Under the pieces are notes generated by a model, which had not been told where the DNA came from, did no database searches, and saw nothing but the letters and a program-made list of their open reading frames with translations. From an uncultured delta proteobacterium (GTDB lineage Bacteria; Myxococcota_A; Polyangia; Fen-1088), in assembly GCA_963737265.1 (NCBI GenBank), contig CAVTRY010000011.1:64001-128000 (forward strand): a stretch of 64,000 bases of DNA. Reading direction: 5' to 3'. The position numbers and the translations under genes were made by a program. This document shows positions 5,738 through 64,000 of this stretch, one piece after another. Numbering within the stretch: the stretch's first letter is position 1; each line of letters begins with the position of its first letter.

Positions 5738-5768
5738 CGACGCTTCGACGTTTGGACTGGAGACAACC

Positions 5769-6869: not shown

Positions 6870-7753
6870 GTTTGGACCAAGCGGAAAACCTCAGATTGCG
6901 CGTGGCAGGCGGCAAACCAGTCGGCGTCGCGGCGGTCGAGCCCCTGCGCGTGATGGCCGTGACCAGTGGCAAAGGCGGCGTGGGCAAGACCATGCTCACC
7001 GCCAACTTGGCCGTCCTCGCCGCCAAGCGCGGCAAGCGCGTGCTCATCATCGACGCCGACCTCGGGCTCGCCAACGTCGAGATCGTCTTCGGCGTGAAAC
7101 CCAAGCGCCACATGGGCGACCTCTTGCACCCCGAGGTTTCGGTCGATGACGTCTTGATTGAAGTGCGCCCCGGCATCCACATTCTTCCCGCAGCCTCGGG
7201 CATCCAGCATCTCACCCAGCTCGGCGAGGAAGACAAGCTTCACCTCATCGCCACGCTCGACGGACTCGCCGATCGATTCGATCTGGTGCTCATCGACTCG
7301 GGCGCTGGCATTGGCGACAACGTGCTCTTCTTCGTGGGGATCGCGCAGGAAATCGTTCTCGTGGTGACGCCGGAACCCACTTCTCTCGTGGACGCCTACG
7401 CCGCAGTGAAGGTGCTGTCGCAACAGATGGGTCTGAAGGATTTCGGCGTGGTCGTCAACGCCGTTGTCGACGAGATGGCCGCGCGCGACGTCTTCCAGAA
7501 ACTGGTCACCTTGGCCGATAGGTTTCTGAGCGTCCGCATTCGCCACCTGGGCTACATCACCCGCGACGAGAACGTGCACCGGGCCATCATGGCGCAGAAG
7601 CCAATCACGGATCTGTTTGCTCAGGCTCCGGCAAGTCGCGCGCTGAGCTTGGTCGCGGATCGCCTGTTCAACTCTGCACCGCCTCCGGCTGTGGACGGTG
7701 GCATGAAGCTGATGTGGCACCGCCTTTTCCGGGAGGCCGGCGTGCCGAGGTAA
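6866..7753 (+). CDS. flhG: MinD-like ATPase FlhG/FleN
   Basis: DQAENLR N-terminal motif, SGKGGVGKT, DADLGLAN, TPEPTS; GTG start overlaps the flhF stop. Confidence 0.94.
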   Translation: MSLDQAENLRLRVAGGKPVGVAAVEPLRVMAVTSGKGGVGKTMLTANLAVLAAKRGKRVLIIDADLGLANVEIVFGVKPKRHMGDLLHPEVSVDDVLIEVRPGIHILPAASGIQHLTQLGEEDKLHLIATLDGLADRFDLVLIDSGAGIGDNVLFFVGIAQEIVLVVTPEPTSLVDAYAAVKVLSQQMGLKDFGVVVNAVVDEMAARDVFQKLVTLADRFLSVRIRHLGYITRDENVHRAIMAQKPITDLFAQAPASRALSLVADRLFNSAPPPAVDGGMKLMWHRLFREAGVPR

Positions 7754-7764
7754 CCGGAGTGACG

Positions 7765-8469
7765 ATGCACAGGGCCATTGCGACCTACGCCACCAGCGCT
7801 CCGGTTCTGTCCGACGAAGCCGCGCTGCTCGAAAAGTACCAGAGCCTGATCGAACGAATCGCGCGGCGGCTGGTGTGGCGAACCGGCATGCACAGCGCCT
7901 ACGATGATCTTTGGTCGGCCGGCGGGTTGGCCCTCATCGAGGCCGGGCGGCGCTACGATCCAGCGAAAGGCGCGACCTTTGCGACCTTCGCCGAGCACCG
8001 GGTGCGCGGCGCCATGATCGATGAATTGCGCAGCATGGACCACCTTCCGCGGCGTTTGCGCAATCGCACCGACGACATGGCCAAGGCCAAGCGCAAGCTG
8101 GAAGAGGAATTGGGGCGGGAAGCGACGACGGACGAGATCGCCAAAGAATTGGATCTGGACATCGACGAGGTGGCGGGCATCGCTGCGCTGATGGAACCGC
8201 ACCTGCCGTTAGACTCGGTCCTTCATCGCGTCTCCAGCACGGATGATTCGGATGCGGCTCTGGAGCGGGCGGAGACCGTCCGACGGCTCAGCCGCGCGCT
8301 CGAAGCACTGCCCGAGCGCCTGCGCATGGTGCTCGGCTTGCACTACGACGAAGACCTTACCTATCGCGAGATCGCCAAGCTCATGCAGATCAGCGAGCCA
8401 CGCGTGTGCCAATTGCATGGCGATGCGCTGAAGAAGATGCGCGAGGCGATGAAGGACGAAGAAGAGTAG
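7765..8469 (+). CDS. fliA: Flagellar sigma factor sigma-28
   Basis: FATFAEHRVRGAMIDELRSMD, region 4 ISEPRVCQLH; follows flhFG. Confidence 0.95.
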   Translation: MHRAIATYATSAPVLSDEAALLEKYQSLIERIARRLVWRTGMHSAYDDLWSAGGLALIEAGRRYDPAKGATFATFAEHRVRGAMIDELRSMDHLPRRLRNRTDDMAKAKRKLEEELGREATTDEIAKELDLDIDEVAGIAALMEPHLPLDSVLHRVSSTDDSDAALERAETVRRLSRALEALPERLRMVLGLHYDEDLTYREIAKLMQISEPRVCQLHGDALKKMREAMKDEEE

Positions 8470-8494
8470 CGAGGCAGAGGGCCGCCTGGCGCGG

Positions 8495-9388
8495 CTACTT
8501 GAAGACCCTGACCGACGGTAGCAGCTTCTCGAACTGGGTCAGGGTGGACATGACTTGGTCACCTTTGAGCCCGAGATCCGTGAATACGGTCTCGGCCGGA
8601 TCGAGCAATCGTTTCGATGCTCGTCCGATTCCCATGGCGTCGGCGAAGGCGTCGGCGCCGGCGATGAGGTTGGCGGAGAAGTGGTGCCCGCCGAGCTTGT
8701 AGTTGTGGTGGTGGGCGGCGGCCTCGACGGTGCTGCTGGGAAGCTTCCACACCATGCACGCAGCGGCGCCGACCTTGCTGTGGTACGCCTGCAACGCATC
8801 CATGATGATGCCGAGAAACACCGGTTCCTTGGCCATTTCCCAGGTGACCTTGCCACTCTTCACGCAGCGATCGAGCAAGATGAGGTCGCCGATGTCGTGC
8901 AGCAGACCGGCGGTGAAGGCCGCCTCCATGGGCAGACGCAGTGTGGACGCGATCAGACGCGCGGCCAGCGCCGTTGCCGGAAAGCGCGAGGTGACTTGCT
9001 GAACGTGGTCGTCGAAGCCGCGAATGCGAAACATGGTGGAGCTGGTCACGACCATCATGACGATGTCGCTCACATTAGACAGGCCGATGCGCACGATGGC
9101 GTCGCGCACGCTGACGATCGGCATGCGCGGAGCGAACAGGGGCGAGTTGGCGACCGAGACCATTTGTGCGCTTATGAATGGATCGCGCGACACGGATTTT
9201 TCGATGCGGAGCGCGTCGCTAGAAGCGTGCTGGCACAGCTCCATCACCTCGGCCGCTACATCGGGCAGGCTGCGCTTAATGGCATGCGTGTCCTGGATGA
9301 CCTCGCGGGCGCAGTCGGCGATGATCTGTGTCAGCTCTGCGGGATCGGGTACAACCGTCGCGCGGTCCGCTTTGCGAAAGCCAAGCAT
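8495..9388 (-). CDS. HDOD domain protein
   Basis: SLPDVA..DPFISAQMVSVANSPLF..AIVRIG, AFTAGLLHDIG, WKLP. Confidence 0.88.
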   Translation of the reverse strand: MLGFRKADRATVVPDPAELTQIIADCAREVIQDTHAIKRSLPDVAAEVMELCQHASSDALRIEKSVSRDPFISAQMVSVANSPLFAPRMPIVSVRDAIVRIGLSNVSDIVMMVVTSSTMFRIRGFDDHVQQVTSRFPATALAARLIASTLRLPMEAAFTAGLLHDIGDLILLDRCVKSGKVTWEMAKEPVFLGIIMDALQAYHSKVGAAACMVWKLPSSTVEAAAHHHNYKLGGHHFSANLIAGADAFADAMGIGRASKRLLDPAETVFTDLGLKGDQVMSTLTQFEKLLPSVRVFK

Positions 9389-50979: not shown

Positions 50980-51153
50980 TTCACGTGCGCAGTGCTTGCG
51001 CCATGGATAGCTGGCTCGTGTTGTAGGGCAGCGGCAGCAGTATGGTTGTTTGAGAAGTCAGTCCGGGTCGCGCAGCCGAAGGGCGTGGACATGTGTCCCG
51101 ACGCGGTCTGGGCGTGTCGTCCGACTCGACGAGAGTCAGAAGCGGAAAAAGCC

Positions 51154-52989
51154 ATGGCAGACAACTCCAGCGTCAGTAGGCAGATTTGCGGGAAGCTCGG
51201 CAACGACAAGAACCGGTTGATGGACATTCTGCTAGGCGTCCAGGCGCAGGCAGGTTGCATCGCCGGCGAAGCTCTCGACGAAATCGCTCAATCCCTGTCG
51301 ATGAGCAGGGTCGAGGTCGAAAGCGCGGCGACGTTCTACGCCTTCTTCTCCGAGGAGCGGCGCGGGCGATTCGTCATTCGGCTGTGCAACGACGTCATTG
51401 ATCAGATCCATGGCATGGACCGCATCGCCGCGGCTTTCCGCGCCGAGCTCGGCATCGAGTTCGGACAGACCACGGCGGATGGACTGTTTTCGCTCGAATA
51501 CACACCGTGCATCGGGATGTCGGATCAGGCGCCGGCCTTGCTGATCAATCACAAGGTCGTGACTCGAGTCTCGACGGACATGGTGTACGAGATCGTACAA
51601 ACCTTGCGGGCGACCAATGATTTGGGCCAGATCAAGTTTCCCCTCGGAGATGGCAACAACAGCCATCCCCTCGTGCGCGCCATGGTACTTAACAATCTGC
51701 GCGAGCGGGGCGCGGTCGTGTTCGCGCCATCCACACCGGCTGTTGCTCTGCAACGAGCACTTTCGGAACAGCCGGTCGAGATCATCAAGATTGTAAAGGC
51801 GTCGCGCCTGCGCGGGCGCGGCGGGGCTGGTTTCCCGACCGGCATGAAGTGGGAGTTCACCCGTGCGGCCGAGGGTGCACGCAAGTTCATCGTGTGCAAC
51901 GCCGACGAGGGCGAACCCGGGACGTTCAAGGATCGGGTGATCCTCACCGAGGCTGCGGATCTGATGTTCGAGGGCATGACCATCGCTGGCTACGCCATCG
52001 GAGCGGGCGAAGGCATCGTCTACTTGCGCGGTGAATATGCGTACCTGCTGCCATTCCTCGACGACGTGCTCGCCAGGCGGCGCGCGGCAGGTCTGCTTGG
52101 GCGCGACATTTTGGGCAAAACCGGGTTCCGTTTCGATATTCGCATCCAGCTTGGCGCCGGTGCCTACGTGTGCGGCGAGGAAACGGCGCTGCTGAGCTCG
52201 TGTGAAGGCAAGGCCGGGGATCCCAAGACGCGACCTCCATTTCCGGCGCAAAAGGGCTACCTCGGCATGCCCACCGTCATCAACAACGTAGAAACGTATT
52301 GCGCCGCCGCTCGAATCATCGAAAACGGTCCGGGGTGGTTCACGTCCATGGGCACGCCGGGCAGCGCCGGAACCAAGGTGTTCAGCGTGTCCGGCGACTG
52401 TGGCCAGCCGGGCGTCTACGAGCTGCCCTTCGGTATCACCCTCGGCGAGCTCTTGGCTCGCGTGGGCGCAAGCGATACTGTTGCCGTGCAGGTGGGCGGC
52501 GCGGCCGGCCGAATGATTGGGCCGGCGGAATTTGGCCGCAGATTCTGTTACGACGATCTCGCCACCGGCGGCTCGGTCATGGTGTTCGGTCCACAAAGGG
52601 ACGTGCTGGGTGTTGCTCACGCCTTCATGGAATTCTTCGTCGACGAAAGTTGTGGCTACTGCACCCCTTGCCGGGTCGGCACCCGCTTGCTGCTTGAACG
52701 CCTGCGGAGATTCCTGGCCGGCACAGCCGATGGCGCGGATATCGACTATCTGGAAAAGGTCGGGAAAACCATGAAGACGGCAAGCCGATGCGGCCTTGGG
52801 CAGACGGCGGCGAATCCAGTGCTCTCAACCATTCAGAGCTTTCGTCAGAATTATGAGCGCCGGCTCAAGCCGAACGGAGCCGTTTTCCTGTCGTCGTTCG
52901 ATCCGCGCAAAGCCGTTGTCACGGCCGAGGGTATCGCCGGGCGCGCTTCGATGCATTTCGGGACCCAGAAAGGCGAGGTGCAATCGTGA
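51154..52989 (+). CDS. hoxF: NAD-reducing hydrogenase diaphorase subunit HoxF (NuoE-like plus NuoF fusion)
   Basis: LRGRGGAGFPTG, NADEGEPGTFKDR, GAYVCGEET, ESCGYCTPCR; the N-terminal NuoE-like domain keeps only two of four Cys. Confidence 0.9.
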   Translation: MADNSSVSRQICGKLGNDKNRLMDILLGVQAQAGCIAGEALDEIAQSLSMSRVEVESAATFYAFFSEERRGRFVIRLCNDVIDQIHGMDRIAAAFRAELGIEFGQTTADGLFSLEYTPCIGMSDQAPALLINHKVVTRVSTDMVYEIVQTLRATNDLGQIKFPLGDGNNSHPLVRAMVLNNLRERGAVVFAPSTPAVALQRALSEQPVEIIKIVKASRLRGRGGAGFPTGMKWEFTRAAEGARKFIVCNADEGEPGTFKDRVILTEAADLMFEGMTIAGYAIGAGEGIVYLRGEYAYLLPFLDDVLARRRAAGLLGRDILGKTGFRFDIRIQLGAGAYVCGEETALLSSCEGKAGDPKTRPPFPAQKGYLGMPTVINNVETYCAAARIIENGPGWFTSMGTPGSAGTKVFSVSGDCGQPGVYELPFGITLGELLARVGASDTVAVQVGGAAGRMIGPAEFGRRFCYDDLATGGSVMVFGPQRDVLGVAHAFMEFFVDESCGYCTPCRVGTRLLLERLRRFLAGTADGADIDYLEKVGKTMKTASRCGLGQTAANPVLSTIQSFRQNYERRLKPNGAVFLSSFDPRKAVVTAEGIAGRASMHFGTQKGEVQS

Positions 52990-53732
52990 GCACGCAGGGA
53001 AGCAAGCAACAAAGCAAGAATGTCGGCTTCACTATCGACGGCAAGGAAGTGCAGGGTGAGCAGGGGCAGACCATCCTGCAAGCCGCAGCACTAGCCAACA
53101 TCTACATTCCTCACCTGTGCGCGATGCGTGGACTCTCGCCCTGGGGAAGCTGCCGCGTGTGCACAGTGCTGGTGAATGGCCGGCCGCAGGCTGCCTGCAC
53201 CATGCCCATCAGCGAGGGCATGGTGGTGGAGAATGACACCCCGGATCTCAAAGACCTGCGCAGCAGCTTGGTCGAAATGCTTTTCGTCGAGGGCAACCAC
53301 TATTGCATGTTCTGCGAGAAGAGCGGCAATTGTGAATTGCAAGCCGTGGCCTACCGGTTGGGCATTCTTTCGCCACGGCATCCGTACATGTTCCCGGCGC
53401 GCGAAGTGGACGCAAGTCATCCCGATGTGATGTTGGATTACAACCGCTGCATTTTGTGCGCTCGCTGCATACGGGCATCCCGAGAATTGGATGACAAGCA
53501 CGTGTTCCAGTTCATCAAACGGGGGGCCCACAAGCGCGTCGGTGTCAATAGCGCCAATGGCGCTGTTGCAACCAACCTTGTCGTGGACGACAAGGCTGCG
53601 GAAGCATGTCCGGTTGGTTGCATCATCAAGAAGCGCGTGGGCTTTGCCGTGCCGATTGGCCAACGCCTCTACGACAAGAAACCCATTGGCAGCGAAATCG
53701 AAAGCGGACGCGCGGCCACCAGTTCGCGGTAG
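52986..53732 (+). CDS. hoxU: Diaphorase Fe-S subunit HoxU
   Basis: IPHLC..GSCRVC..C, HYCMFCEKSGNCELQ, CILCARC. Confidence 0.9.
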   Translation: MSTQGSKQQSKNVGFTIDGKEVQGEQGQTILQAAALANIYIPHLCAMRGLSPWGSCRVCTVLVNGRPQAACTMPISEGMVVENDTPDLKDLRSSLVEMLFVEGNHYCMFCEKSGNCELQAVAYRLGILSPRHPYMFPAREVDASHPDVMLDYNRCILCARCIRASRELDDKHVFQFIKRGAHKRVGVNSANGAVATNLVVDDKAAEACPVGCIIKKRVGFAVPIGQRLYDKKPIGSEIESGRAATSSR

Positions 53733-53740
53733 GCGGGATC

Positions 53741-54289
53741 ATGGCAAACAAACCCAAGCTGGCGACAGTATCCTTGGCCGGGTGTTTCGGCTGTCACATG
53801 TCGATTCTCGACATTGACGAGCGGATTTTGAAGCTCATTGAATTGGTCGATTTCGATCGGTCGCCGATCGACGATATCAAGAAGATCGAAGGTCGCTGCA
53901 CGGTGGGAATCGTCGAGGGCGGCTGCTGCAACGAAGAGAACGTGCATGTCTTGCAACACTTTCGCGAGCATTGCGACGTGCTGATTTCAACCGGCGACTG
54001 CGCCATCATGGGTGGCATTCCGGCGCTGCGTAACACCATCCCGCTCAAGGAATGTCTGGACGAGGCCTACTTAAAGGGACCGACGGTTTACAATCCACGC
54101 GCGCGCCTGCCGAGCGATCCGGAAATTCCACTCTTGCTCGACCGGGTCTATCCGTGCCACGAAGTGGTCAAAATGGACTACCATTTGCCTGGTTGTCCGC
54201 CCTCGGCCGAGACCATCTGGCAGGCGCTGGTGGCGCTCCTTGGCGGAAAGCCGCTGGAGCTGTCCTACGAGCTTATCAAGTACGACTGA
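53741..54289 (+). CDS. hoxY: Hydrogenase small subunit HoxY
   Basis: GCFGCHMS, GDCA, PGCPP. Confidence 0.92.
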   Translation: MANKPKLATVSLAGCFGCHMSILDIDERILKLIELVDFDRSPIDDIKKIEGRCTVGIVEGGCCNEENVHVLQHFREHCDVLISTGDCAIMGGIPALRNTIPLKECLDEAYLKGPTVYNPRARLPSDPEIPLLLDRVYPCHEVVKMDYHLPGCPPSAETIWQALVALLGGKPLELSYELIKYD

Positions 54290-54307
54290 GAGCGGAGAGG
54301 AGATCCG

Positions 54308-55741
54308 ATGAGCGTTGCCAAGCGAATCGTCATCGAACCCGTGACCCGCGTGGAAGGCCACGGAAAAGTCACCATATTGCTCGACGAGAATCAAAAGGTC
54401 GTGCAGGCCCGCCTGCATGTCGTGGAATTTCGCGGCTTCGAGCGTTTCATCCAGGGGCGTCCCTTCTGGGAAGTTCCGGTGCTGGTACAGCGTCTGTGCG
54501 GTATTTGTCCGGTCAGCCACCATTTGGCCGCCGCCAAGGCCATGGACCGCATCGTGGGCGGCGAGAACCTGACGCCGACGGCGGAGAAAATTCGCCGCCT
54601 CATGCACTACGGGCAAACCTACCAATCGCACGCGCTGCATTTCTTCCATCTGGCTTCGCCCGACCTGCTGTTTGGTTTTGGCTCGGACGTCGCCACCCGC
54701 AATGTTATCGGTGTGGCGGGCAAGCATCCGGAGCTGGCGCTGCAGGCCGTGATGATGCGCAAGTACGGCCAGGAGATCATCAAGGCCACGGCAGGCAAGA
54801 AGATCCACGGCACCGGCGCCATTCCCGGCGGGGTCAACAAGAACCTGTCCATTCCCGAGCGCGACGGGTTCCTCAAGGACGTCGAGCAGCAGCTGGCGTG
54901 GGCGAAGGCGGCGGTCAAGATCGCCAAGGACTACACGGTGCAAAACCTGGCCAGTCTGGCGCCCTTCGGATCCTTTGAATCCAACCATCTGTCGCTGGTG
55001 CGCGCCGACGGTGCGATGGATCTGTACCACGGCAACCTGCGCGCCATCGACGGGCAAGGGAATATCATTTTCGAACAGGTCGACTACCAAAAGTACGTCG
55101 AACTCATCGCGGAAGAAGTCCGCGATTGGTCGTACATGAAATTTCCATTCATTCGATCGGTCGGGCCGGAAAAGGGATGGTACCGGGTGGGACCGCTGGC
55201 ACGACTCAACACCGCCGGTTTCATCGATACGCCGCTGGCCGAGGCGGAACGTAAGGAGTTTCGCGCCGTCACCGCCAACAAGCCGAACAACATCACCATG
55301 GCCTATCACTGGGCGCGCATGGTCGAATTGCTGCACGCGATGGAGAAAATCCAGGCGCTCCTCGATGACAAGGATCTGCAAGGCACGAATCTGGTGGTCA
55401 AGGGCCAGCGGCGCGAGGTCGGCATCGGTCTTATCGAAGCGCCGCGCGGAACCTTGTTCCATCACTACAAGGTGGACAAGAACGACCAGGTCGTGTCAGC
55501 CAATCTTATCGTGTCGACCACTAACAACAATGAGCCCATGAACCGGGCGGTGGCCAAGGTGGCGCAGGACCATTTACAGGGCGTGGAGATCACCGAGGGC
55601 TTGCTCAATCACGTCGAGGTCGCCATTCGCGCCTACGATCCGTGCCTTTCGTGCGCGACGCACGCGCTCGGGCAAATGCCGTTGGAAGTGACCGTGGTCG
55701 ATCTCCAAGGCGAGATCCTTTCGCAGAAGAGCAGGGGATGA
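54308..55741 (+). CDS. hoxH: [NiFe] hydrogenase large subunit HoxH (group 3d)
   Basis: TRVEGH, L1 RLCGICPVSH, L2 YDPCLSCATH plus a cleavable extension. Confidence 0.95.
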   Translation: MSVAKRIVIEPVTRVEGHGKVTILLDENQKVVQARLHVVEFRGFERFIQGRPFWEVPVLVQRLCGICPVSHHLAAAKAMDRIVGGENLTPTAEKIRRLMHYGQTYQSHALHFFHLASPDLLFGFGSDVATRNVIGVAGKHPELALQAVMMRKYGQEIIKATAGKKIHGTGAIPGGVNKNLSIPERDGFLKDVEQQLAWAKAAVKIAKDYTVQNLASLAPFGSFESNHLSLVRADGAMDLYHGNLRAIDGQGNIIFEQVDYQKYVELIAEEVRDWSYMKFPFIRSVGPEKGWYRVGPLARLNTAGFIDTPLAEAERKEFRAVTANKPNNITMAYHWARMVELLHAMEKIQALLDDKDLQGTNLVVKGQRREVGIGLIEAPRGTLFHHYKVDKNDQVVSANLIVSTTNNNEPMNRAVAKVAQDHLQGVEITEGLLNHVEVAIRAYDPCLSCATHALGQMPLEVTVVDLQGEILSQKSRG

Positions 55742-56273: not shown

Positions 56274-56651
56274 ATGAGCGATGGAAAACACCTCATCCTT
56301 TGCGTCGATGACGACGCCGACCTTCTCGACCTTCTGCGCATGCAGCTTGAAAAGGGCGGCTATCGCGTGGAGTCGGCATTCTCGGCCGAAGAGGGCTTGG
56401 TCAAGTTCAAACAACTCCAGCCCGATCTCGTCATCCTCGATTTGATGATGGAAGAGATCGACGCCGGAACCAACCTGGTCAAGGAGCTCAAGCTGGCTGG
56501 CAATCGCGCGCCTGTGCTGCTGCTCAGCTCCATGGGCGATCAACTGAGCTTATCGACCGGCTATCGCGAGCTGGGTTTGGATGCCGTGTTTCAGAAGCCG
56601 GTGAACGCCGAGGCGCTGTTGCGTACGATCAAAGCCAAGCTCGCGCCTTAG
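56274..56651 (+). CDS. Single-domain response regulator
   Basis: VDDD, PDLVILDLMM, QKP. Confidence 0.92.
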   Translation: MSDGKHLILCVDDDADLLDLLRMQLEKGGYRVESAFSAEEGLVKFKQLQPDLVILDLMMEEIDAGTNLVKELKLAGNRAPVLLLSSMGDQLSLSTGYRELGLDAVFQKPVNAEALLRTIKAKLAP

Positions 56652-56679
56652 CGGACTGGGGTTCCACCTGCCAACCACG

Positions 56680-58062
56680 ATGGAAGCAGTGGAAGGCCAT
56701 CCGTTGATTCTTTCGCACAGTCTGCTGCTGGGCGAGCGTCTGTACTTTTTCACGCGCCTGCGCTTTCTGGCCGCGCTCGGCATTCTGGTGGGAGCACCGT
56801 TTGCTACCTTCGTCGTCGGCATTCGGGGACTTGACCTCGCGGCGTTGACGGCTGCAGCGATTTTCCTGGCAACGTACAACGTCGCTATTTTCTTCGCTGT
56901 CCGACCTTTCCGCCGCCCCCAGGACGAGCCACGGATTTACCGCCGCTTGGTTGGAATTGCTCACCTCTCGATTCTCTTCGACTATTGGGTCCTGACGTAC
57001 GCCACCTGGTTGGTGGGCGGCTCGCAGTCGCCTTTCCTGGCCTTCTACCTTCTGCACGCAATTCTCGCCTGCGTGCTGCTATCGCGCCAAGCGGCCTATG
57101 TCCACGCGACCCTCGGGTACCTCCTGCTCGCCGGCCTGGTGCTTGGGGAATGGTTCGGCGTCCTCGCCAAGCACCGTCCCATCGGGGCGGTGCCCGGTGG
57201 CCCCGGGGCTGAGGTGCGCGTGGTCATGACCGTACTCTTTGTCTACGGTTTGTTGATGGCGGTAACCACCGTCCTGACGAGCGGAATCGTCCGTCTGCTG
57301 CGCGAAAGCGATCGCCGGCTGCGCGAGGCCGGCGATCGATTGGAACGCCTGGCGGACATGCGCCGCTCGTTTCTTCACGTCGTCTTGCACGATTTACGCA
57401 GCCCTGTCGGAACCGTGGTTGCCATGCTCGAAGGTTTGCACAGCGGCATCGATGGCCCTCTTGGCGAAGCACAGAAACATCGCGTGGGCAGGGCCGGCGA
57501 GCGATTGCGAGGCGTTCTTGATCTTCTGCGCGGGCTGCGCATTCTGGCCGATTTGGAGACGGAACGTCTGGACAGCATGATGGCTCCGGTGGATATGCTG
57601 GATCTGATTCGGGCCTTGGTGGAAGACCACCTTGATGCGGCCGAGCAGCGCGGGCACAGCTTGCGAACGGTTTTGCCGGCATCGCTGCCTCAGGTCCGCG
57701 GCGTCGATCGATTGATTCGCGAAGCCCTGGCCAACTACGTGTCCAACGCCATCAAATACACCGATCGGGGCGGTGCCATCACCGTTCGCGCGGAACAGGC
57801 AGGGCAGGGTGTGCGGGTTGAGGTAGCCGATAACGGGCCTGGTATCGCCGGCGAAGCGCAGAATCGCCTGTTCCAGGAATTCAATAAGGTGGGCAAGCCC
57901 GGATCGAGTTCCGGCGAAGCCGCTGGGATCGGGTTGGGTCTGTCCATCGTCCGACGCATCGCCGAGGCGCACGGCGGCAGCTTCGGCGTGGTCAGCCAGG
58001 CCGGCGAGGGCAGCATCTTCTTCTTCGAGCTGCCCGCCGTTGCCCCCGTGACGACCCGGTAG
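56680..58062 (+). CDS. Membrane sensor histidine kinase
   Basis: About 6 TM helices; HDLRSP, SNAIKY, DNGPGI, GIGLGL. Confidence 0.92.
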   Translation: MEAVEGHPLILSHSLLLGERLYFFTRLRFLAALGILVGAPFATFVVGIRGLDLAALTAAAIFLATYNVAIFFAVRPFRRPQDEPRIYRRLVGIAHLSILFDYWVLTYATWLVGGSQSPFLAFYLLHAILACVLLSRQAAYVHATLGYLLLAGLVLGEWFGVLAKHRPIGAVPGGPGAEVRVVMTVLFVYGLLMAVTTVLTSGIVRLLRESDRRLREAGDRLERLADMRRSFLHVVLHDLRSPVGTVVAMLEGLHSGIDGPLGEAQKHRVGRAGERLRGVLDLLRGLRILADLETERLDSMMAPVDMLDLIRALVEDHLDAAEQRGHSLRTVLPASLPQVRGVDRLIREALANYVSNAIKYTDRGGAITVRAEQAGQGVRVEVADNGPGIAGEAQNRLFQEFNKVGKPGSSSGEAAGIGLGLSIVRRIAEAHGGSFGVVSQAGEGSIFFFELPAVAPVTTR

Positions 58063-58294
58063 CGCTGCGGTCTGCCCATTTTTTGTTGTGACAAAAAAGA
58101 CGATGAAGTTTGCGTCGGCGAGATTCCGAGTTTCGAAGAAAGTACAAGAATGCCGTCCACGCGCAGCGGTATTGCTTGATATCTCCGCATAAGCACGGCG
58201 GTTTGTCCTGGCTAGCAGGTATTCCGACCGCCAAATGATTGATTAACCCGGCATGTTCGGTGCTTGACTTGCCTTCGATGCACCGGTAAATAGA

Positions 58295-58347: not shown

Positions 58348-59037
58348 ATGAACAAGCAAAAAATCCCAAGCCGATGTGTAGAGCGCCTCAGTATCTACAG
58401 GCGTGCCTTGCTTCAGGATCGCTGTGCTTCTGGCCCAAGCATTTTTTCGCACCAGCTGGCGTTTGCCTGCCGGCTGACTGCGGCCCAGGTGCGGCGAGAC
58501 TTGATGCTTATCGGGTACAGCGGGAGTCCGACCACCGGTTACGAGGTCAAGCGCCTGCTTTCGTCCATCGGCACCTTGATCGATCCGCCCGAGATACGCG
58601 AGGTGGCCATTGTTGGCATGGGACACCTCGGGCGCGCCATCGCGGCCTACTTGGCCAATCGTCTGCCGAAGATTCGCCTTGCCGCGGGCTTCGATGTCAA
58701 CCCAGACAAGATCGGCGCCACGTTCAGTGGCGTGCGCTGCCATTCGGTTCAGAAACTGGCCGAGGTAGTGGCCGAAAGGAAGATCGGCCTCGGTATCCTG
58801 ACCGTACCCGCCGAGCACGCGCAGGCCGCGGCCGAGCAGTTGGTCCACGCTGGCGTCACCGGCATTCTCAACTTCGCCCCGGTGTGCCTGCACATTCCAA
58901 GTCGCGTCTCCGTCGAGAGCATCGACATGACGGTGGCTTTGGAAAAGGTGGCCTTTTTCGCCTGCGGCAGTTCTAGAAGAAAAGGAACAATCGATGACCA
59001 CAGCAGCACGAGCAACATCGACCAAACCGCTCCTTAA
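58348..59037 (+). CDS. rex: Redox-sensing repressor Rex
   Basis: IP..RLSIYRR, QVRRDL, GY.V, VGMGHLGRA, ILNFAP. Confidence 0.94.
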   Translation: MNKQKIPSRCVERLSIYRRALLQDRCASGPSIFSHQLAFACRLTAAQVRRDLMLIGYSGSPTTGYEVKRLLSSIGTLIDPPEIREVAIVGMGHLGRAIAAYLANRLPKIRLAAGFDVNPDKIGATFSGVRCHSVQKLAEVVAERKIGLGILTVPAEHAQAAAEQLVHAGVTGILNFAPVCLHIPSRVSVESIDMTVALEKVAFFACGSSRRKGTIDDHSSTSNIDQTAP

Positions 59038-59488
59038 GGAGTTTGGCGAGGCCAAGCGAGACAGTCTGATCCCGATCCTTCAGAAAGCCCAAGAGGTTCA
59101 TGGCTACCTATCGGAAGAGGCCATCGCCGAGATAGGGCGCCACCTCAAGCTTCCCGCGAGCAAGGTCTACGGCGTCGCGACCTTCTACAATCAGTTTCGC
59201 TTCACGCCCAAGGGCAAGTACCACATCATGTTGTGCCGCGGGACCGCCTGCCACGTGAAGGGCTCGCTCAAGCTGCTCGACGCGGTCACGCGTACGCTGA
59301 AATTGCAAGCCGGCCAGACCACCCGCGACGGGCTGTTCAGCCTGGAGGTCGTGGCGTGCATGGGTGCCTGCGGTTTGGCGCCGGCCATGAGCATCAACGG
59401 CGAGATGCACGCCAAGGTCACCCCCAAGAAGGTCGCTAAGCTTCTCGAAGAGTGCCGCGCCAAGGAGCAGGTCCATGCCCACGCCTGA
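58994..59488 (+). CDS. [FeFe] hydrogenase [2Fe-2S] subunit (HydC/HndA, NuoE-like)
   Basis: LIPILQ..GVATFY, CRGTAC..CMGAC. Confidence 0.9.
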   Translation: MTTAARATSTKPLLKEFGEAKRDSLIPILQKAQEVHGYLSEEAIAEIGRHLKLPASKVYGVATFYNQFRFTPKGKYHIMLCRGTACHVKGSLKLLDAVTRTLKLQAGQTTRDGLFSLEVVACMGACGLAPAMSINGEMHAKVTPKKVAKLLEECRAKEQVHAHA

Positions 59489-62400
59489 GACATCTACCAA
59501 GACAACCTGTTGGACCGCGCCCTCGCAGCCAACCGCCGAGCTTTTGGCTAAGTTGCCGGTCGGTCCGCTTTCCGCGAACGCCGGCCCCAATATCGGCGAG
59601 CGCATCACCCTGCTTCGTCGCGACGAGGTGCGCAAGCCGACCATTTTGATTGGCACGGGCACCTGCGGTCTCGGCGCTGGCGCGGCCAAGACCATGGAAG
59701 CGGCGAAAGCCTACGTCGCCAAACGCATGATCGATGCGGAGGTCGTCGAGGTTGGCTGCCTCGGCATGTGCTCGGAAGAACCTATGCTCGATGTGCAGCT
59801 GCCGGGCAAGGCGCGCATCAGCTTCTGCCGAGTTACCGCCGACAAAGTTGGCGGGGTGCTCGACGCCGCCTTGGCTGGCAAGTTGCCCCAAGACGGAGTG
59901 CTCGGCCAATTCCGCGGCGCTGCCGGCGAGCCCTGGGCCAAGGTGCCCTTCCTCGACCAACACCCATTTTTCGCCCCGCAGCTGCGCTGGGTGCTTGCCA
60001 ACTCGGGCATCATCGATCCCGGCAGCATCGACGAATACATCGCGCGCGGCGGCTACAGCTCGCTGGAAAATACCCTGCGCACGAAAAAGCCCGACGAGGT
60101 TTGCGACATCGTGGCCAAGGGCGGCCTGCGCGGCCGTGGCGGCGGCGGGTTCCCCACCGGGATGAAGTGGAAGTTCGCGCGCGAGGCTCCCGGCGACCAC
60201 AAATACCTCATTTGCAACGCGGACGAGGGCGATCCCGGAGCCTTCATGGATCGCGCGGTGGCGGAAAGTGATCCCTATCGTTTGCTCGAAGGCATGGTGA
60301 TCGCGGCCTATGCCATCGGCGCCAGCAAGGCGTACATCTACATTCGCGCCGAGTACCCGCTCGCCATCGAGCGTCTGCGCGTGGCCATTCCCAAGGCCAC
60401 GGAATACGGACTACTCGGCAAGAACATCCTGGGCAGCGGTTTCGACTTGGAAATCGTGCTCAAACTTGGCGCCGGTGCCTTCGTGTGCGGTGAAGAAACC
60501 GCGCTTATGCAAAGCATCGAGGGCAAGCGCGGAATGCCACGGCCGCGACCGCCTTTCCCGGCCGTCAAGGGCCTGTTCGGCATGCCTACGGTCATCAACA
60601 ACGTCGAGACGCTGGCCTGCGTGTCCACGCTGATGGAGATGGGCGGCGATGCATTCGCCGCGGTTGGCACAGCTAAGAGCAAGGGCACCAAGGTGTTCGC
60701 GCTTTCGGGCATGGTCAGCCGCACCGGCCTCGTCGAAGTGCCCATGGGCACCACCATCCGCAAGATCGTGTTCGACGTAGGCGGTGGCAATCCCTCGGGC
60801 AAGAAATGCAAGGCGGTTCAGATCGGCGGTCCATCGGGCGGCTGCATCCCTGAACCGAAGATGGACATCATCGTCGACTACGATGCCATCAAGGAACTGG
60901 GCGCCATCATGGGCTCGGGCGGCTTGGTCGTGCTCGACGAAACCACCTGCATGGTCGACTTGGCCAAGTTCTTCATGGAGTTCATCCAGAACGAGAGCTG
61001 CGGCAAGTGCATCCCGTGCCGCGAAGGCACCAAGCGCATGCTGGAGATCTTGCAAGCCATCACCCGGCCGCGCCGGCGTGAAAACGGCAACGATGCTCTG
61101 CTGCGTTTTCAGGGCGTCATGCAGCTCAAGCAACTGGCCGAAACCATCCGCATCAGCTCGCTGTGTGGCCTCGGCCAGACCGCGCCCAATCCGGTGCTCA
61201 GCACCATGCGCTGGTTCCGCGACGAGTACGAAGCGCACATCTTCGATCGCGCTTGTCCGGCGGGCACCTGCAAGGATCTCGTCGGGGCGCCTTGTCAGAC
61301 TGGCTGTCCGGTGGGCACCGAAGTGTGGCGCTACGTCGCGCACCTTGGACGCGGCGAAACCGAGCTGGCCTATCAAGCCATCCGCGAGGCCAACCCGTTT
61401 CCGTCGGTATGCGCCCGCGTGTGCAGCCATCCCTGCGAGGATGTCTGCCGCTGCGGCGCCACGGGCGGCGAACCCATCGCGGTGCGCGCGCTCAAGCGCT
61501 ACGTGGTGGATCACGTCGATCCGTCCGCGTACCGGGTGACTCTCAAGGGCGCCACCCCCAAGTCGAAGAAGGTGGCGGTCATTGGCGCCGGACCCTCGGG
61601 CCTTACGGCGGCACACTACCTGTCGCTCAAGGGACACAAGGTCACGGTGTTCGAGAAGGAGAACGAGCCGGGCGGCATGCTTTTCAACGGCATTCCGGCC
61701 TATCGGCTGCCGCGCGACGTGGTTCGCAAGGAGATCGCGTCGCTGCTCAACGACAACATCGAGCTCAAGTGCAATATCGCCTTGGGCAAGGACGTCACGG
61801 TCGACGGTCTCTTGGCGAGCGGGTTCGACGCGGTCTACGTCTCGATCGGCGCGTACAAGAGTCAGCGTCTCGGCATCGACGGCGAGCATGTGGCCGGCGT
61901 GATTCCTGGCATGGCCTTCCTCAAGGCCAACAACTTGCGCGGCGAAACCTTGGCGCAAGGCAAGGTGGGCATCATTGGCGGTGGTAACACCGCCATGGAT
62001 GCCGCCCGCGTGGCGCTGCGCCAACCCGGGGTCGACAAGGTCACCATCCTCTACCGGCGGACGCGCGACGAAATGCCCGCCTTCGAGGAGGAGGTCCACG
62101 CCGCCCTCGAGGAGGGCATCGAGATCAAGGAGTTGGCAACTCCTGTCGCGGTGCTGTCGGAGAATGGCAAGCTCACCGGCGTGCGCCTGCTCCGCAACGA
62201 GCTCGGCGACCAGGATTCGAGCGGCCGGCGCAAACCGGTGCCGGTCAAGGGCAGCGAATTCGACGTCGCGCTCGATACGTTGATCGTGGCCATCAGCGAA
62301 CAGCCAGAGGCCGAGTCCTTCCAAGGTCTGCGCACCACCAAGTGGGGCACCATCGAGACCAACTCCGAGTCGACCGCGGCCGGCCGGCCCGGTGTATTCA

Positions 62401-62729
62401 GTGGCGGCGATGTGGCACGCGGCCCGTCGGGAGTCATCGAGGCTATCGCCGACGGCAAACGGGCCGCGCTGATGGTGGATCGCTATCTCACCGGGCGGCA
62501 GATGAAGATGATCAAGAAGGTGAAGCTACCTTCGATCTACATCGAGCCTGTGGAGGTTGACGACGACGAGGGCGAGACCATCGTGGAACGGGCCGTCGAG
62601 GACAAGGTATCGCCAGCGAAGCGGCGCAAGAGCTTCGTCGAGGTGGAAACGGGTCTGTCGCTGCAGGCGGCGACGGATGAAGCAAAAAGGTGCCTGCGCT
62701 GTGACCTGGATTTTACCCGACCCCTTTGA
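59475..62729 (+). CDS. [FeFe] hydrogenase flavin subunit: HndB-like ferredoxin + NuoF/HydB + GltD-like FAD/NADPH domain fusion
   Basis: GTCG..GCLGMC; NADEGDPGAFMDR, GGPSGG, ESCGKCIPCR; PCQTGCP, CARVCSHPCEDVC, GAGPSG, GGGNTAMD, YRR, C-terminal RCLRC. Confidence 0.9.
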   Translation: MPTPETSTKTTCWTAPSQPTAELLAKLPVGPLSANAGPNIGERITLLRRDEVRKPTILIGTGTCGLGAGAAKTMEAAKAYVAKRMIDAEVVEVGCLGMCSEEPMLDVQLPGKARISFCRVTADKVGGVLDAALAGKLPQDGVLGQFRGAAGEPWAKVPFLDQHPFFAPQLRWVLANSGIIDPGSIDEYIARGGYSSLENTLRTKKPDEVCDIVAKGGLRGRGGGGFPTGMKWKFAREAPGDHKYLICNADEGDPGAFMDRAVAESDPYRLLEGMVIAAYAIGASKAYIYIRAEYPLAIERLRVAIPKATEYGLLGKNILGSGFDLEIVLKLGAGAFVCGEETALMQSIEGKRGMPRPRPPFPAVKGLFGMPTVINNVETLACVSTLMEMGGDAFAAVGTAKSKGTKVFALSGMVSRTGLVEVPMGTTIRKIVFDVGGGNPSGKKCKAVQIGGPSGGCIPEPKMDIIVDYDAIKELGAIMGSGGLVVLDETTCMVDLAKFFMEFIQNESCGKCIPCREGTKRMLEILQAITRPRRRENGNDALLRFQGVMQLKQLAETIRISSLCGLGQTAPNPVLSTMRWFRDEYEAHIFDRACPAGTCKDLVGAPCQTGCPVGTEVWRYVAHLGRGETELAYQAIREANPFPSVCARVCSHPCEDVCRCGATGGEPIAVRALKRYVVDHVDPSAYRVTLKGATPKSKKVAVIGAGPSGLTAAHYLSLKGHKVTVFEKENEPGGMLFNGIPAYRLPRDVVRKEIASLLNDNIELKCNIALGKDVTVDGLLASGFDAVYVSIGAYKSQRLGIDGEHVAGVIPGMAFLKANNLRGETLAQGKVGIIGGGNTAMDAARVALRQPGVDKVTILYRRTRDEMPAFEEEVHAALEEGIEIKELATPVAVLSENGKLTGVRLLRNELGDQDSSGRRKPVPVKGSEFDVALDTLIVAISEQPEAESFQGLRTTKWGTIETNSESTAAGRPGVFSGGDVARGPSGVIEAIADGKRAALMVDRYLTGRQMKMIKKVKLPSIYIEPVEVDDDEGETIVERAVEDKVSPAKRRKSFVEVETGLSLQAATDEAKRCLRCDLDFTRPL

Positions 62730-62757
62730 TGGCGGCGGCAAGCAGGAAGAAAACAAC

Positions 62758-64000
62758 ATGCTGACCATCGAGATCAACGGAAAGAAGCTGGAAGCCGCCA
62801 AGGGCGAGACCATCCTCACGGTCGCGCGCCGCAACGGCATTGAAGTGCCGACCCTGTGCCACATGGAAGGGCTCATGCCGAGCGGCGCCTGCCGCATGTG
62901 CGTAGTCGACGTGGAGGGCTCTGCCAATCTCCTCACGGCGTGCTCGTACCCCGTCGTAGAGGGAATGAAGGTGCGCACGCATTCGCCGCGCGCGCTTGAA
63001 ACCCGCCGCACCATCGTGCAACTACTGCTCGCCAATCACCCGGACGACTGCCTCTACTGCTCGCGCAGCTCGAACTGCGACCTGCAGGCGCTGGCGCGCG
63101 ATCTTGGCATCAGCCGGCGCGAGTACCACGGCTTCAAGAGCAAGCAAATCCTGGACGTCTCGGGACCGTCGCTGGTGCGCGATCCCGAAAAGTGCATCCT
63201 GTGCGGCAAGTGCGTGCGGGTGTGTGAAGATATCCAAGGCGTGTCGGCCATCGACTTCGTCGGCCGCGGCAGCAAGACCGTTATTGGGACCGCGTTCTCG
63301 CGCGGGCTCGCCACCTCAAGCTGCATCAACTGCGGCCAGTGCGTGGTGGTTTGCCCGACTGGCGCGCTCGTCGAACGCTCCTACGTGCCCGAGGTGCTGT
63401 CCGCCCTGCGCGACCCGGACAAGTACCTGGTGGTGCAGCACGCGCCGGCGGTTTCGGTCACGCTGGCCGAGGAATTCGGCGTCGGGCCGGGCAGCGACTG
63501 CGACGGCCAAATGGTGGCCGCGCTTCGCCGCGCCGGCTTCAAGCGCGTGTTCGACACCAGCTTCAGCGCCGACCTCACCATCATGGAAGAGGCGTCCGAG
63601 CTGGTGCAGCGGATTCAGACGGGTGGCAAACTGCCGATGTTCACCAGCTGCTCGCCCGGCTGGATCAAATTCATCGAGGAGTTCTACCCGGACATGCTCG
63701 GACACGTCTCGACGTGCAAGAGCCCGCAGCAGATGTTGGGCGCGGTCATCAAGAGCTACTTCGCCGAACGCGAAGGAATCGACCCGGCCAAGATAGTCAG
63801 CGTGTCCATCATGCCGTGCACGGCCAAGAAGTACGAAGCTGGCCGACCCGAGATGGCGCAAAACTACGTTCCCGACGTGGACTACGTACTTACCACGCGC
63901 GAGGCTGCCCAGCTTTTGCGCATGAGCGGTGTGGGCATGCTTGGCATCGAGCCGGAAATGGCGGACACACCCTTCGGCGAGCGGTCTACGGCAGGCAAAA
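62758..64000 (+). CDS. hydA: [FeFe] hydrogenase catalytic subunit (group A, HndD/HydA-like), 3' truncated
   Basis: Not in the ORF track; manual translation gives VPTLC..GACRMC, HPDDCLYC, 2x[4Fe-4S], ADLTIMEE, P1 FTSCSPGW and P2 MPCTAKKYE. Confidence 0.93.
   Translation, partial: MLTIEINGKKLEAAKGETILTVARRNGIEVPTLCHMEGLMPSGACRMCVVDVEGSANLLTACSYPVVEGMKVRTHSPRALETRRTIVQLLLANHPDDCLYCSRSSNCDLQALARDLGISRREYHGFKSKQILDVSGPSLVRDPEKCILCGKCVRVCEDIQGVSAIDFVGRGSKTVIGTAFSRGLATSSCINCGQCVVVCPTGALVERSYVPEVLSALRDPDKYLVVQHAPAVSVTLAEEFGVGPGSDCDGQMVAALRRAGFKRVFDTSFSADLTIMEEASELVQRIQTGGKLPMFTSCSPGWIKFIEEFYPDMLGHVSTCKSPQQMLGAVIKSYFAEREGIDPAKIVSVSIMPCTAKKYEAGRPEMAQNYVPDVDYVLTTREAAQLLRMSGVGMLGIEPEMADTPFGERSTAGK

Follow-up and report, generated by a model that had tools for sequence, protein, structure and literature searches.

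Electron-bifurcating [FeFe] hydrogenases of the HydABC type (T. maritima 7p5h, A. woodii 7q4v, T. kivui 8a6t) consist of HydA with its H-cluster, HydC, and HydB, whose core with flavin mononucleotide (FMN), the [4Fe-4S] cluster B1 and a hinge is followed by a C-terminal 2x[4Fe-4S] ferredoxin-like domain, the B3/B4 arm. In the NfnABC and StnABC complexes (9bov, 9n5u, 8oh5) the BfuB subunit also keeps B3/B4, an H-cluster is missing, and a GltD-type module for nicotinamide adenine dinucleotide phosphate (NADP(H)) lies inside the NuoG-like BfuA, feeding a mid-potential path; the publications on the Bfu family (PMC9304861) and on Stn (PMC7483475) both put this module in BfuA only. A BfuB in which B3/B4 is replaced by DPD_II and a flavin adenine dinucleotide (FAD)/NAD(P) domain was described in mSystems in 2024 as "sub-type I" from Hydrogenedentota, in silico only; homologues are listed from Spirochaetota, Pseudomonadota, Planctomycetota, Verrucomicrobiota, Kiritimatiellota and two cultured Thermodesulfobacteriota strains, with Syntrophus gentianae DSM 8423 and Desulfotignum balticum DSM 7044 given as carriers (PMC11406978). 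Here we analyzed a stretch of 64,000 nucleotides from an uncultured delta proteobacterium (G000:C11:64001-128000, "the window"), at the end of which (58994-64000) three co-directional genes with overlapping or nearly touching ends encode HydC, a fused flavoprotein in which a HydB core continues into a GltD-type module, and HydA.

Our best guess is that the enzyme is a cytoplasmic heterotrimeric Bfu-type (HydDB group A3-like) [FeFe] hydrogenase, HydA-HydB*-HydC. HydB* retains the complete NADH/FMN "flavobicluster" core of the bifurcating enzymes. Right after the H-x5-CPAGxC hinge, however, the B3/B4 arm is replaced by an NADP(H)-FAD-2x[4Fe-4S] module of the kind that elsewhere lies within StnC/NfnA. 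The original prediction for this locus, made from the letters alone, had presented it as the best candidate for an undescribed system; this can no longer be upheld, as the sub-type I replacement is in print (PMC11406978) and the fusion is abundant in databases. Compared by description, sub-type I BfuABC and the window locus both have DPD_II (Fer4_20) and an FAD/NAD(P) domain in place of B3/B4, in a gene beside bfuA (hydA) and bfuC; the window locus differs in having a sensor-kinase gene after hydA, plus rex. The description of the sub-types mentions bfuT, the gene of the sensory hydrogenase, for sub-types IV and V only and leaves Rex unmentioned (PMC11406978), and the combination of rex and an H2-sensor kinase in the operon is a new point beside the published architecture. 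The genes of the cluster are:

58348..59037, + strand: rex, gene of the redox-sensing repressor, first gene of the cluster; its 3' end overlaps the start of hydC
58994..59488, + strand: hydC (BfuC/NuoE-like), thioredoxin-like [2Fe-2S] subunit of 164 amino acids (aa); Pfam 2Fe-2S_thioredx 173.6 bits, NCBIfam NuoE/HoxE-like
59475..62729, + strand: fused flavoprotein subunit (BfuB/HydB core and GltD-type module), 1084 aa
62758..64000, + strand: hydA, encoding the catalytic subunit of the [FeFe] hydrogenase (M3 type), truncated at the end of the window

Architecture of the Fused Subunit

In the 1084-aa protein, Pfam recognizes Complex1_51K (residues 213-384), SLBB (407-455), NADH_4Fe-4S (495-588), Fer4_20 (598-681, a match that starts only at profile position 23) and Pyr_redox_2 (698-994). 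Among the NCBIfam models, TIGR01959 (nuoF_fam) covers residues 184-589 with 465.9 bits, the GltD-like models PRK12771 and PRK12814 cover approximately 561-1078, and partial matches are found to YgfK, AegA and SfrB-like models. Pfam, NCBIfam and the alignments to chains in the PDB thus agree with the predicted joining of a NuoF core to a complete GltD-type module. Conservation was read from an alignment of 26 family members (63-96% identity, mean column identity 73%), referred to below as the family alignment. The parts of the subunit, in window coordinates, are:

59475..59639, + strand: conserved N-terminal extension of 55 residues; M1 and W13 invariant, C12 nearly so in the family alignment
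59640..59924, + strand: thioredoxin-like N-terminal domain ("B5" site), residues 56-150, with C64, C95 and C99
60024..61241, + strand: NuoF core with NADH/FMN site, SLBB and [4Fe-4S] cluster "B1" (C509, C512, C515, C564); TIGR01959
61236..61283, + strand: hinge H588-x5-C594-P-A-G-x-C599-K-x-L, last segment homologous to HydB/NfnB/StnB
61287..62726, + strand: GltD-type module replacing the B3/B4 ferredoxin-like domain (phmmer, NCBIfam)
61290..61517, + strand: Fe-S part of the module; C611/C650/C654/K674 for cluster "A7", C607/C658 with C1073/C1076 for putative cluster "A6"
61569..61682, + strand: FAD dinucleotide-binding fold VAVIGAGPSGL..., Pfam NAD_binding_8 and Pyr_redox at residues 699-736; kept in all solved relatives
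61959..62081, + strand: second Rossmann fold, predicted NADP(H) site GIIGGGNTAMDAAR...LYRRTRDEMPA; aligned to C. saccharolyticus (Csac) NfnA, T. sibiricus (Tsi) NfnA, S. ovata (Sov) StnC, T. maritima (Tm) NfnB and Pf NfnL
62604..62705, + strand: permuted C-terminal segment ending in RCLRC (C1073, C1076); aligns to the NfnB/NfnL N-terminus

The exchange of domains is sharply placed. Alignments to nine solved BfuB-type chains end at query residues 600-614, stopping at the conserved RDEYEAHIxD(K/R)xCPAGxCKxL (residues 582-603), whereas the solved chains run on for approximately 55-60 residues and enter the 2x[4Fe-4S] (B3/B4) domain at this point. That the fused subunit lacks this domain, a feature of HydABC enzymes, had been predicted and is borne out by Pfam, which finds no Fer4 after residue 603. 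The hinge itself may represent the B2 zinc site, by analogy with the structures reported in PMC11829005.

Compared with all PDB sequences, residues 56-606 match BfuB-type chains, with T. sibiricus NfnB (9n5u_B, 666 bits) as the best and NiFe-HydB 7t2r_B, A. woodii HydB 7q4v_B and S. ovata StnB 8oh5_B as further matches. In the family alignment, neither the B1 cysteines nor the hinge positions H588, C594 and C599 vary. The motifs GDPGAFMD, RPRPPF and GGPSG can be read in the core, and all three marks named in the original prediction, GAFM, GGPSG and the Phe of RPPF, are therefore present. According to Losey et al. (2020, PMC7311640), bifurcating and non-bifurcating beta subunits are told apart by a Phe (at the position of Tm-HydB 367) and the GGPSG of SLBB; the fused subunit has both in the bifurcating form, together with GAFM.

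The N-terminal domain had been described as an HndB-like thioredoxin-ferredoxin. Its thioredoxin-like nature is confirmed, but the four-cysteine [2Fe-2S] motif is not present: next to C95 and C99, a single cysteine (C64) stands where HydB (NiFe-HydB 7t2r_B) has C-x4-C, and the G-x-x-S/T-C-G pattern matches NfnB/StnB (aligned to 9n5u_B, 9bov_B and 8oh5_B). Two solved Nfn-Bfu structures, Csac NfnB included, are reported to hold a zinc ion and not a [2Fe-2S] cluster at the B5 site (PMC11829005, PMC12018979). Because the 55-residue extension in front of this domain is conserved with its invariant W13, the annotated start is considered right, and because tblastn matches to the nearest unfused HydB genes begin at query residues 8-14, the extension is common to them as well.

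Beyond the hinge, the best phmmer match of the module among solved chains is C. saccharolyticus NfnA (9bov_A residues 102-567, 349.7 bits), followed by T. sibiricus NfnA 9n5u_A and S. ovata StnC 8oh5_C (350, 342, and 321 bits for the three) and then by the NfnSL proteins T. maritima NfnB 4ylf_B (293.8 bits) and Pf NfnL 5jca_L (269.6 bits). The first cluster after FAD in Csac NfnA ("A7") is reported to be held by C108, C147, C151 and K170 (PMC11829005), which map by alignment to C611, C650, C654 and K674; C607, C658, C1073 and C1076 would be placed to hold a second cluster ("A6"). At the position of K674, the query, Csac and Tsi read LKR and Sov reads LKS, whereas the NfnSL chains 4ylf_B and 5jca_L have Glu (LER). 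The RCLxC element has indeed moved to the C-terminus, as the original prediction had noted: residues 1044-1077 align to 4ylf_B 10-43 and residues 606-1008 to 4ylf_B 46-462. The same RCLRC segment aligns to NfnL 5jca_L residues 10-49 and, in StnC/NfnA, to the segment after the module, and the StnC and NfnA modules have the same permuted order as that of the fused subunit. The features of the Nfn-Bfu/Stn enzymes, a GltD-type NADPH module that is permuted and has Lys at the [4Fe-4S] ligand position, are thus found here, and the module is StnC-like rather than NfnSL-like, which is a new point of this analysis.

Both nucleotide-binding motifs proposed earlier, GAGPSG for FAD and GGGNTAMD...LYRRTRDEMPA for NADPH, are read directly in the sequence, and with FMN in the core the two predicted flavin sites are both present. 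The cofactor-ligand residues, the FAD motif and the NADPH motif (GGGN-A-D, YRR) are all invariant in the family alignment, including G835-N838, D842, Y860, R861 and R862 of the NADP(H) site. NADP(H) binding is well supported by homology, as the element YRR(T/S)xxEMPA recurs in four modules of solved structure that bind NADPH, those of Csac NfnA, Tsi NfnA, Sov StnC and Tm NfnB. We consider the architecture of the fused subunit, together with its binding of NADP(H) and FAD, to be nearly certain. An AlphaFold2 model of the subunit had a mean predicted local distance difference test score (pLDDT) of 76.3 and a predicted TM-score of 0.55, with pLDDT below 50 at the junction (589-610) and in the cluster loops. 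In Foldseek each listed solved chain matched approximately half of the model (at most 610 aligned columns, TM-score normalized to the query at most 0.45), and by sequence each matched either the core or the module.

In comparison with HydABC, the window core is 44-52% identical in structural alignments, and the operon of its nearest relatives is alike, including Rex and the HydS-histidine kinase; the window subunit differs in the missing B3/B4 arm, in the loss of one of the four N-terminal [2Fe-2S] cysteines and in the extra FAD/NADP(H) module. NfnABC/StnABC provide the best solved matches for both halves and have the permutation, the Lys and the single-Cys N-terminal pattern in common with it, but in the window the module sits on BfuB in the place of B3/B4 and BfuA is a true hydrogenase. 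The flavoproteins of NfnSL/NfnAB (4ylf, 5jca) are homologous in carrying FAD, NADPH and 2x[4Fe-4S] (294 and 270 bits); however, NfnB is unpermuted, has Glu at the cluster-ligand position and requires an NfnS/NfnA partner, and no PyrK/NfnS-like small-subunit gene was found in the operon neighborhood. The NADH-dependent HydAB(C) enzymes of Syntrophus aciditrophicus and Syntrophomonas wolfei also have a beta subunit without B3/B4, and function independently of ferredoxin, with NADP+ reduction below 0.01 U/mg, as given in PMC7311640. The absence of B3/B4 would fit this non-bifurcating type; however, its beta subunits have Tyr for Phe near FMN and lack GGPSG, whereas the window subunit has Phe, GGPSG and an NADP(H) module, and its core nests within canonical HydB. 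In ANME-1 HdrA, an NfnB-like NADPH module is inserted in the ferredoxin domain of another bifurcating flavoprotein, an unrelated host that offers an analogy only (PMC9012536).

HydA, HydC and the Gene Neighborhood

The 19 kb around the window end were examined as locus L003, in which the full hydA encodes 573 aa (L003:4758-6479). Full-length HydA matches the NCBIfam model NF040763, "NADH-dependent [FeFe] hydrogenase, group A6", with 817.3 bits (cut-off 765), and contains the Pfam domains Fe_hyd_lg_C, Fe_hyd_SSU, Fer2_4, NADH-G_4Fe-4S_3 and 2x[4Fe-4S]. Its H-cluster motifs are complete (P1 TSCSPGW, P2 MPCTAKKYE, P3 EVMTCPGGCINGGGQP), and A. woodii HydA1 (7q4v_A), for which bifurcation is proven, has the identical P1. 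The HydC translation shows C-x4-C...C-x3-C cysteines. Apart from B3/B4, the locus therefore has the components of a HydABC enzyme: a HydA with full H-cluster motifs and an N-terminal chain of 2Fe-2S/4Fe-4S clusters, and next to it a NuoE-like HydC with [2Fe-2S] and a NuoF-like HydB with the FMN/NADH site and the B1 [4Fe-4S] cluster.

No ferredoxin-like gene was detected in the operon or in the 12 kb downstream, and the packing of the genes leaves no space for a small intergenic reading frame. A separate subunit of this kind, named in the original prediction as a way back to normal bifurcation, is thus absent from this range. A response regulator, a 689-aa sensor and a receiver-kinase hybrid follow 3' of hydA (L003 6482-10174, window end +482 to +4174). 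The 689-aa protein combines an [FeFe]-hydrogenase-like domain, a putative Fe-S domain and HisKA/HATPase, which makes it a HydS-type H2 sensor fused to a histidine kinase. Beyond these genes, L003 contains unrelated genes on the opposite strand. A complex-I-like operon (nuoA, nuoB, nuoD-like, nuoG-like; L003 12817-17131) begins approximately 8 kb after the end of the hydrogenase operon.

At the 5' side, rex is recognized by Pfam (Put_DNA-bind_N and CoA_binding) and by the NCBIfam Rex subfamily NF003995 (201.7 bits, cut-off 126). A search of the window with the Rex operator consensus TTGTGAA-N4-TTCACAA, allowing up to three mismatches, gave no match, where 1.08 would be expected by chance; it is therefore the linkage of the genes that points to Rex control. 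The 285-nt gap 5' of rex contains an A/T-rich inverted repeat, TTTTTGTTGTGACAAAAAA, at window 58083-58099. Further upstream, window 56274-58062 encodes a 125-aa response regulator and, with 460 aa, a histidine-kinase-like protein. At 50992-55741 lies a cluster for a Hox-type bidirectional [NiFe] hydrogenase, which consists of a 665-aa NuoE+NuoF fusion, a 248-aa HoxU-like protein, and the small and NiFe large subunits of 227 and 477 aa. Two different pyridine-nucleotide-linked hydrogenases thus adjoin in the window.

The genome encodes further [FeFe] hydrogenases. A canonical hydC-hydB-hydA-hydS (histidine kinase)-response regulator-histidine kinase cluster, whose HydB core is 54% identical to the fused one, is found at G000:C22:330000-346000, and a third cluster, in which HydA appears to be divided over two genes, one for the N-terminal Fe-S part and one for the H-domain, at G000:C23:159000-175000. 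Together with the Hox-type [NiFe] hydrogenase, this makes the fused enzyme one of several H2 routes. PntAB-type transhydrogenase and PFOR-type genes are present as well, and no match to Rnf was found in the genome (99.5% completeness).

Distribution of the Fusion

Among the non-self relatives listed, 118 of 119 cover at least 96% of the fused subunit, at 63-96% identity and with lengths of 1043-1126 aa; they come from several phyla, under generic database names such as "FAD-dependent oxidoreductase" or "HndC". The ESM Atlas contains many clusters of 55-209 members with the NuoF and Pyr_redox_2 architecture, and an exhaustive HMMER search returned at least 12 full-length fused representatives within the best 150 matches. 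In a survey of 40 related genomes, 7 of the 12 other genomes of the genus contained a full-length orthologue (84-89% identity) and 3 more contained fragments cut by contig ends (88-90% identity). Among the matches listed for 12 other genera of the family there was none at genus-like identity; one genome from another family of the class has a 66% orthologue. The order hydC-fused gene-hydA was kept in all five same-genus loci that were examined, with a Rex-like gene 5' in four. An origin of the fusion as an artefact or by frameshift was rejected, given the full-length relatives, the conservation within the genus and the metagenome loci.

When metagenome contigs were scanned specifically for the junction, 80 loci were obtained, each of which carries the fusion. 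The window family, defined by a core at least 56% identical, accounts for 26 of them. A survey of NuoF-GltD fusions for neighboring hydA had been proposed with the original prediction, and the association recurs: where window-family loci continue past the fused gene, a complete hydA comes next in 20 of 22. Of the others, one has an N-terminal part of hydA cut by the contig end, four end too early, and one (L107) lacks hydA. In the 20 loci with hydA, the sensor gene was found in 10 and rex in 11. L107 (2001-8530) has a molybdopterin formate-dehydrogenase-like gene 5' of the fused gene, and in L099 (genome G025, 2798-9235) the 66% orthologue lies behind fdhD and fdhA, the latter broken by one in-frame TGA. 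This TGA stands at the presumed selenocysteine position and is probably a selenocysteine codon.

Parts of window 58994-64000 are also contained in contigs from soil, peat, bog and wetland metagenomes; a single soil run holds 46% of the sampled words, exact pieces included. Contigs from RNA libraries (three studies, mostly 88-95% alike and so from relatives) cover hydC, both halves of the fused gene and hydA, and two span gene borders. None of the listed pieces spans the domain junction, and as DNA carry-over is possible, they are not taken as evidence of expression.

Other fusions occur outside the window family. A second fused family makes up the remaining 54 of the 80 junction-bearing metagenome loci (L126, L129-L181) and is present in the window's genus, too (L090-L095). 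It consists of a long NuoE-like protein, a NuoF::GltD fusion (~1060-1130 aa) and a ~230-aa Fe-S protein resembling the NuoG N-terminus, has no catalytic domain, and often has a histidine-kinase gene upstream. It has the appearance of a minimal complex for NAD(H) and NADP(H), of which we found no description. A further fused lineage (L096, L097; core 52%, module 40-42% identical) adjoins hydA and a sensor kinase. More NuoF::GltD fusions were seen in Desulfobacteraceae, Smithella, Anaerolineae and other metagenome-assembled genomes (L014, L064, L067, L070, L071, L079, L020); in L014, L064, L070 and L071 the visible neighbor is not hydA but a NuoG-like gene without H-domain, in L014 a 1026-aa molybdopterin FdhA-like one.

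Origin of the Fusion

In a scan of genome contigs with the full-length alignment, for which generic NuoF motifs served as patterns, the core was closest (57-68% identity) to ordinary HydB proteins of ~650 aa with a C-terminal ferredoxin-like domain. By our classification of the 80 loci listed, 69 contain an unfused HydB-like gene and none is a member of the window family. In many phyla the nearest unfused genes sit in an operon rex-hydC-hydB-hydA-hydS (histidine kinase)-response regulator-histidine kinase, so that the trio of response regulator, sensor and hybrid kinase 3' of hydA is found in the nearest unfused relatives as well.

In a quick 69-row tree of the NuoF core (LG+G4), the window family (12 rows, Shimodaira-Hasegawa-like approximate likelihood ratio test (SH-aLRT) 99) lies inside the canonical HydB clade (21 rows, SH-aLRT 99; 26 rows, 100). 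Other fused proteins appear at no fewer than five other places, and the fused or unfused state needs at least eight changes on this tree; a 37-row core tree under a quick posterior mean site frequency (PMSF) mixture model agrees. In a 48-row module tree, on the other hand, the window-family module (9 rows, 99) nests among the modules of the second family (16 rows, 100), which is distant from the window family on the core tree. Uniting both families on the core tree costs 92 log-likelihood units (approximately unbiased test, p = 0.016), with the group named after the tree was seen. On these trees, the fused proteins that adjoin hydA form no fewer than two lineages, namely the window family and L096/L097. 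That the fusion is polyphyletic is a new point of this analysis, as is its origin by domain shuffling, the simplest reading of the trees. At the conserved junction, a canonical sensor-linked HydB would have gained its module from a paralogue that was already fused.

Discussion

For the enzyme as a whole we tentatively prefer, with somewhat less than even confidence, a coupled mechanism in which NADP(H) takes the place of ferredoxin. The hydrogenase-transhydrogenase hybrid put forward in the original prediction is a candidate function. Electrons would move between the H-cluster and the FMN/B1/C1 site via the HydA clusters, and NAD(H) would react at FMN. The branch that normally goes to ferredoxin would reach FAD and NADP(H) by way of both clusters of the module. 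The third substrate would then be NADP(H), in the reaction NADH + NADPH + 2 H+ <-> 2 H2 + NAD+ + NADP+, and FAD would act as a plain hydride/one-electron converter rather than bifurcate a second time. The Lys ligand, the permuted order and the lack of an NfnS partner argue, short of proof, for an FAD that does not bifurcate as in Nfn. Rex control would suggest that the enzyme is switched on when NADH accumulates, pointing to H2 evolution.

By our own Nernst arithmetic on the working potentials given in Table 1 of PMC9304861, NADH alone would balance H2 at a few Pa, in agreement with the 2.2-40 Pa reported for HydAB (PMC7311640), and NADH together with NADPH (mean about -330 mV) at about 100-150 Pa. 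In reverse, NADPH could be formed from H2 below the ~0.07 bar needed by a direct H2:NADP+ reaction. In a wider form, the enzyme would be the first ferredoxin-free Bfu member, with a flavobicluster that bifurcates or confurcates between NAD(H) and NADP(H) and a module that is a portable cassette, recombined at one conserved junction onto unrelated BfuB cores of hydrogenases, formate dehydrogenases and a complex without catalytic subunit; we regard this as possible but doubtful.

Several points weigh against the coupled mechanism. Its thermodynamic rationale is weaker than for ferredoxin, because passing a -500 mV electron to NADP+ wastes energy, and with a PntAB-type transhydrogenase and a canonical HydABC cluster also encoded in the genome, it is not obvious which metabolic gap the enzyme would close. 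The distal cluster of the module could still dock ferredoxin, as in NfnSL. Two window-family members (L099, L107) pair with a formate-dehydrogenase catalytic subunit and not with HydA, so that the module seems to be general-purpose rather than hydrogenase-specific. The AlphaFold2 model is silent on cluster-to-cluster distances. Finally, in the open full-text literature, subscription-only papers being outside this range, we found neither a characterized enzyme of this architecture nor biochemistry on any member.

The pairing with formate dehydrogenase would equally suit an uncoupled dual-cofactor hydrogenase, in which H2 exchanges independently with NAD(H) or NADP(H), without bifurcation or confurcation. 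Here the module would merely add an NADPH entry or exit to the Fe-S wire, possibly with an NADH:NADP+ transhydrogenase side reaction. Such an enzyme would be in line with the loss of B3/B4 that goes with non-bifurcating HydAB(C) (as given in PMC7311640 and PMC11406978) and with the role of the FAD module as an ordinary mid-potential entry in the Stn/Nfn-Bfu structures reported in PMC11829005. Nevertheless, the core keeps the residues that mark bifurcation, Phe instead of Tyr and GGPSG, it nests in canonical, B3/B4-bearing HydB on the tree, and both the hinge and the C1 cluster of HydC are retained. We consider uncoupled exchange rather unlikely.

An enzyme with two bifurcating flavins and four substrates (H2, NAD, NADP and ferredoxin) appears improbable. 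The module is homologous to NfnB/NfnL (4ylf_B 293.8 bits, 5jca_L 269.6 bits), whose FAD bifurcates, a possible second bifurcating center has been proposed for sub-type I (PMC11406978), and the PFOR-type gene would make reduced ferredoxin available. However, the proximal-cluster ligand is the Bfu-type Lys and not the Glu of NfnSL, the order is the permuted one of StnC, and the operon has no NfnS/PyrK-like partner with the [2Fe-2S] cluster and second FAD needed for NfnSL bifurcation; on the module tree, which contained no NfnSL-type sequence, the module groups with other BfuB-fused modules, apart from stand-alone GltD.

Very improbable, finally, is a module that does not serve NADP(H) turnover as such but delivers electrons to polysulfide or sulfur (SudA/Nso), Fe(III) (SfrB) or a glutamate-synthase large subunit: GltD-like proteins serve all these roles (as given in PMC7483475) and the partial NCBIfam matches to YgfK, AegA and SfrB-like models fit, but the 19 kb around the operon contain neither a gene for a glutamate-synthase large subunit nor one for sulfur metabolism, the residues of the NADPH site do not vary in the family alignment, and NADPH is also the substrate of this module in those GltD relatives.

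The architecture itself has been in print, in silico, since 2024; what is added here concerns the type of the module, its origin and its regulation. If NADP(H) does replace ferredoxin, Bfu-type bifurcation would not be bound to ferredoxin. Anaerobes of soil and peat could then vent NADH and NADPH as H2 at pressures approximately ten- to fifty-fold above those reached with NADH alone, and in the reverse direction could make NADPH from H2. HydA-based calls of "group A3 = ferredoxin/NAD bifurcating" in metagenomes would in that case misassign a considerable number of genes. Being precise and reusable, the junction is also a natural model for the design of hydrogenases whose nucleotide partner can be chosen.

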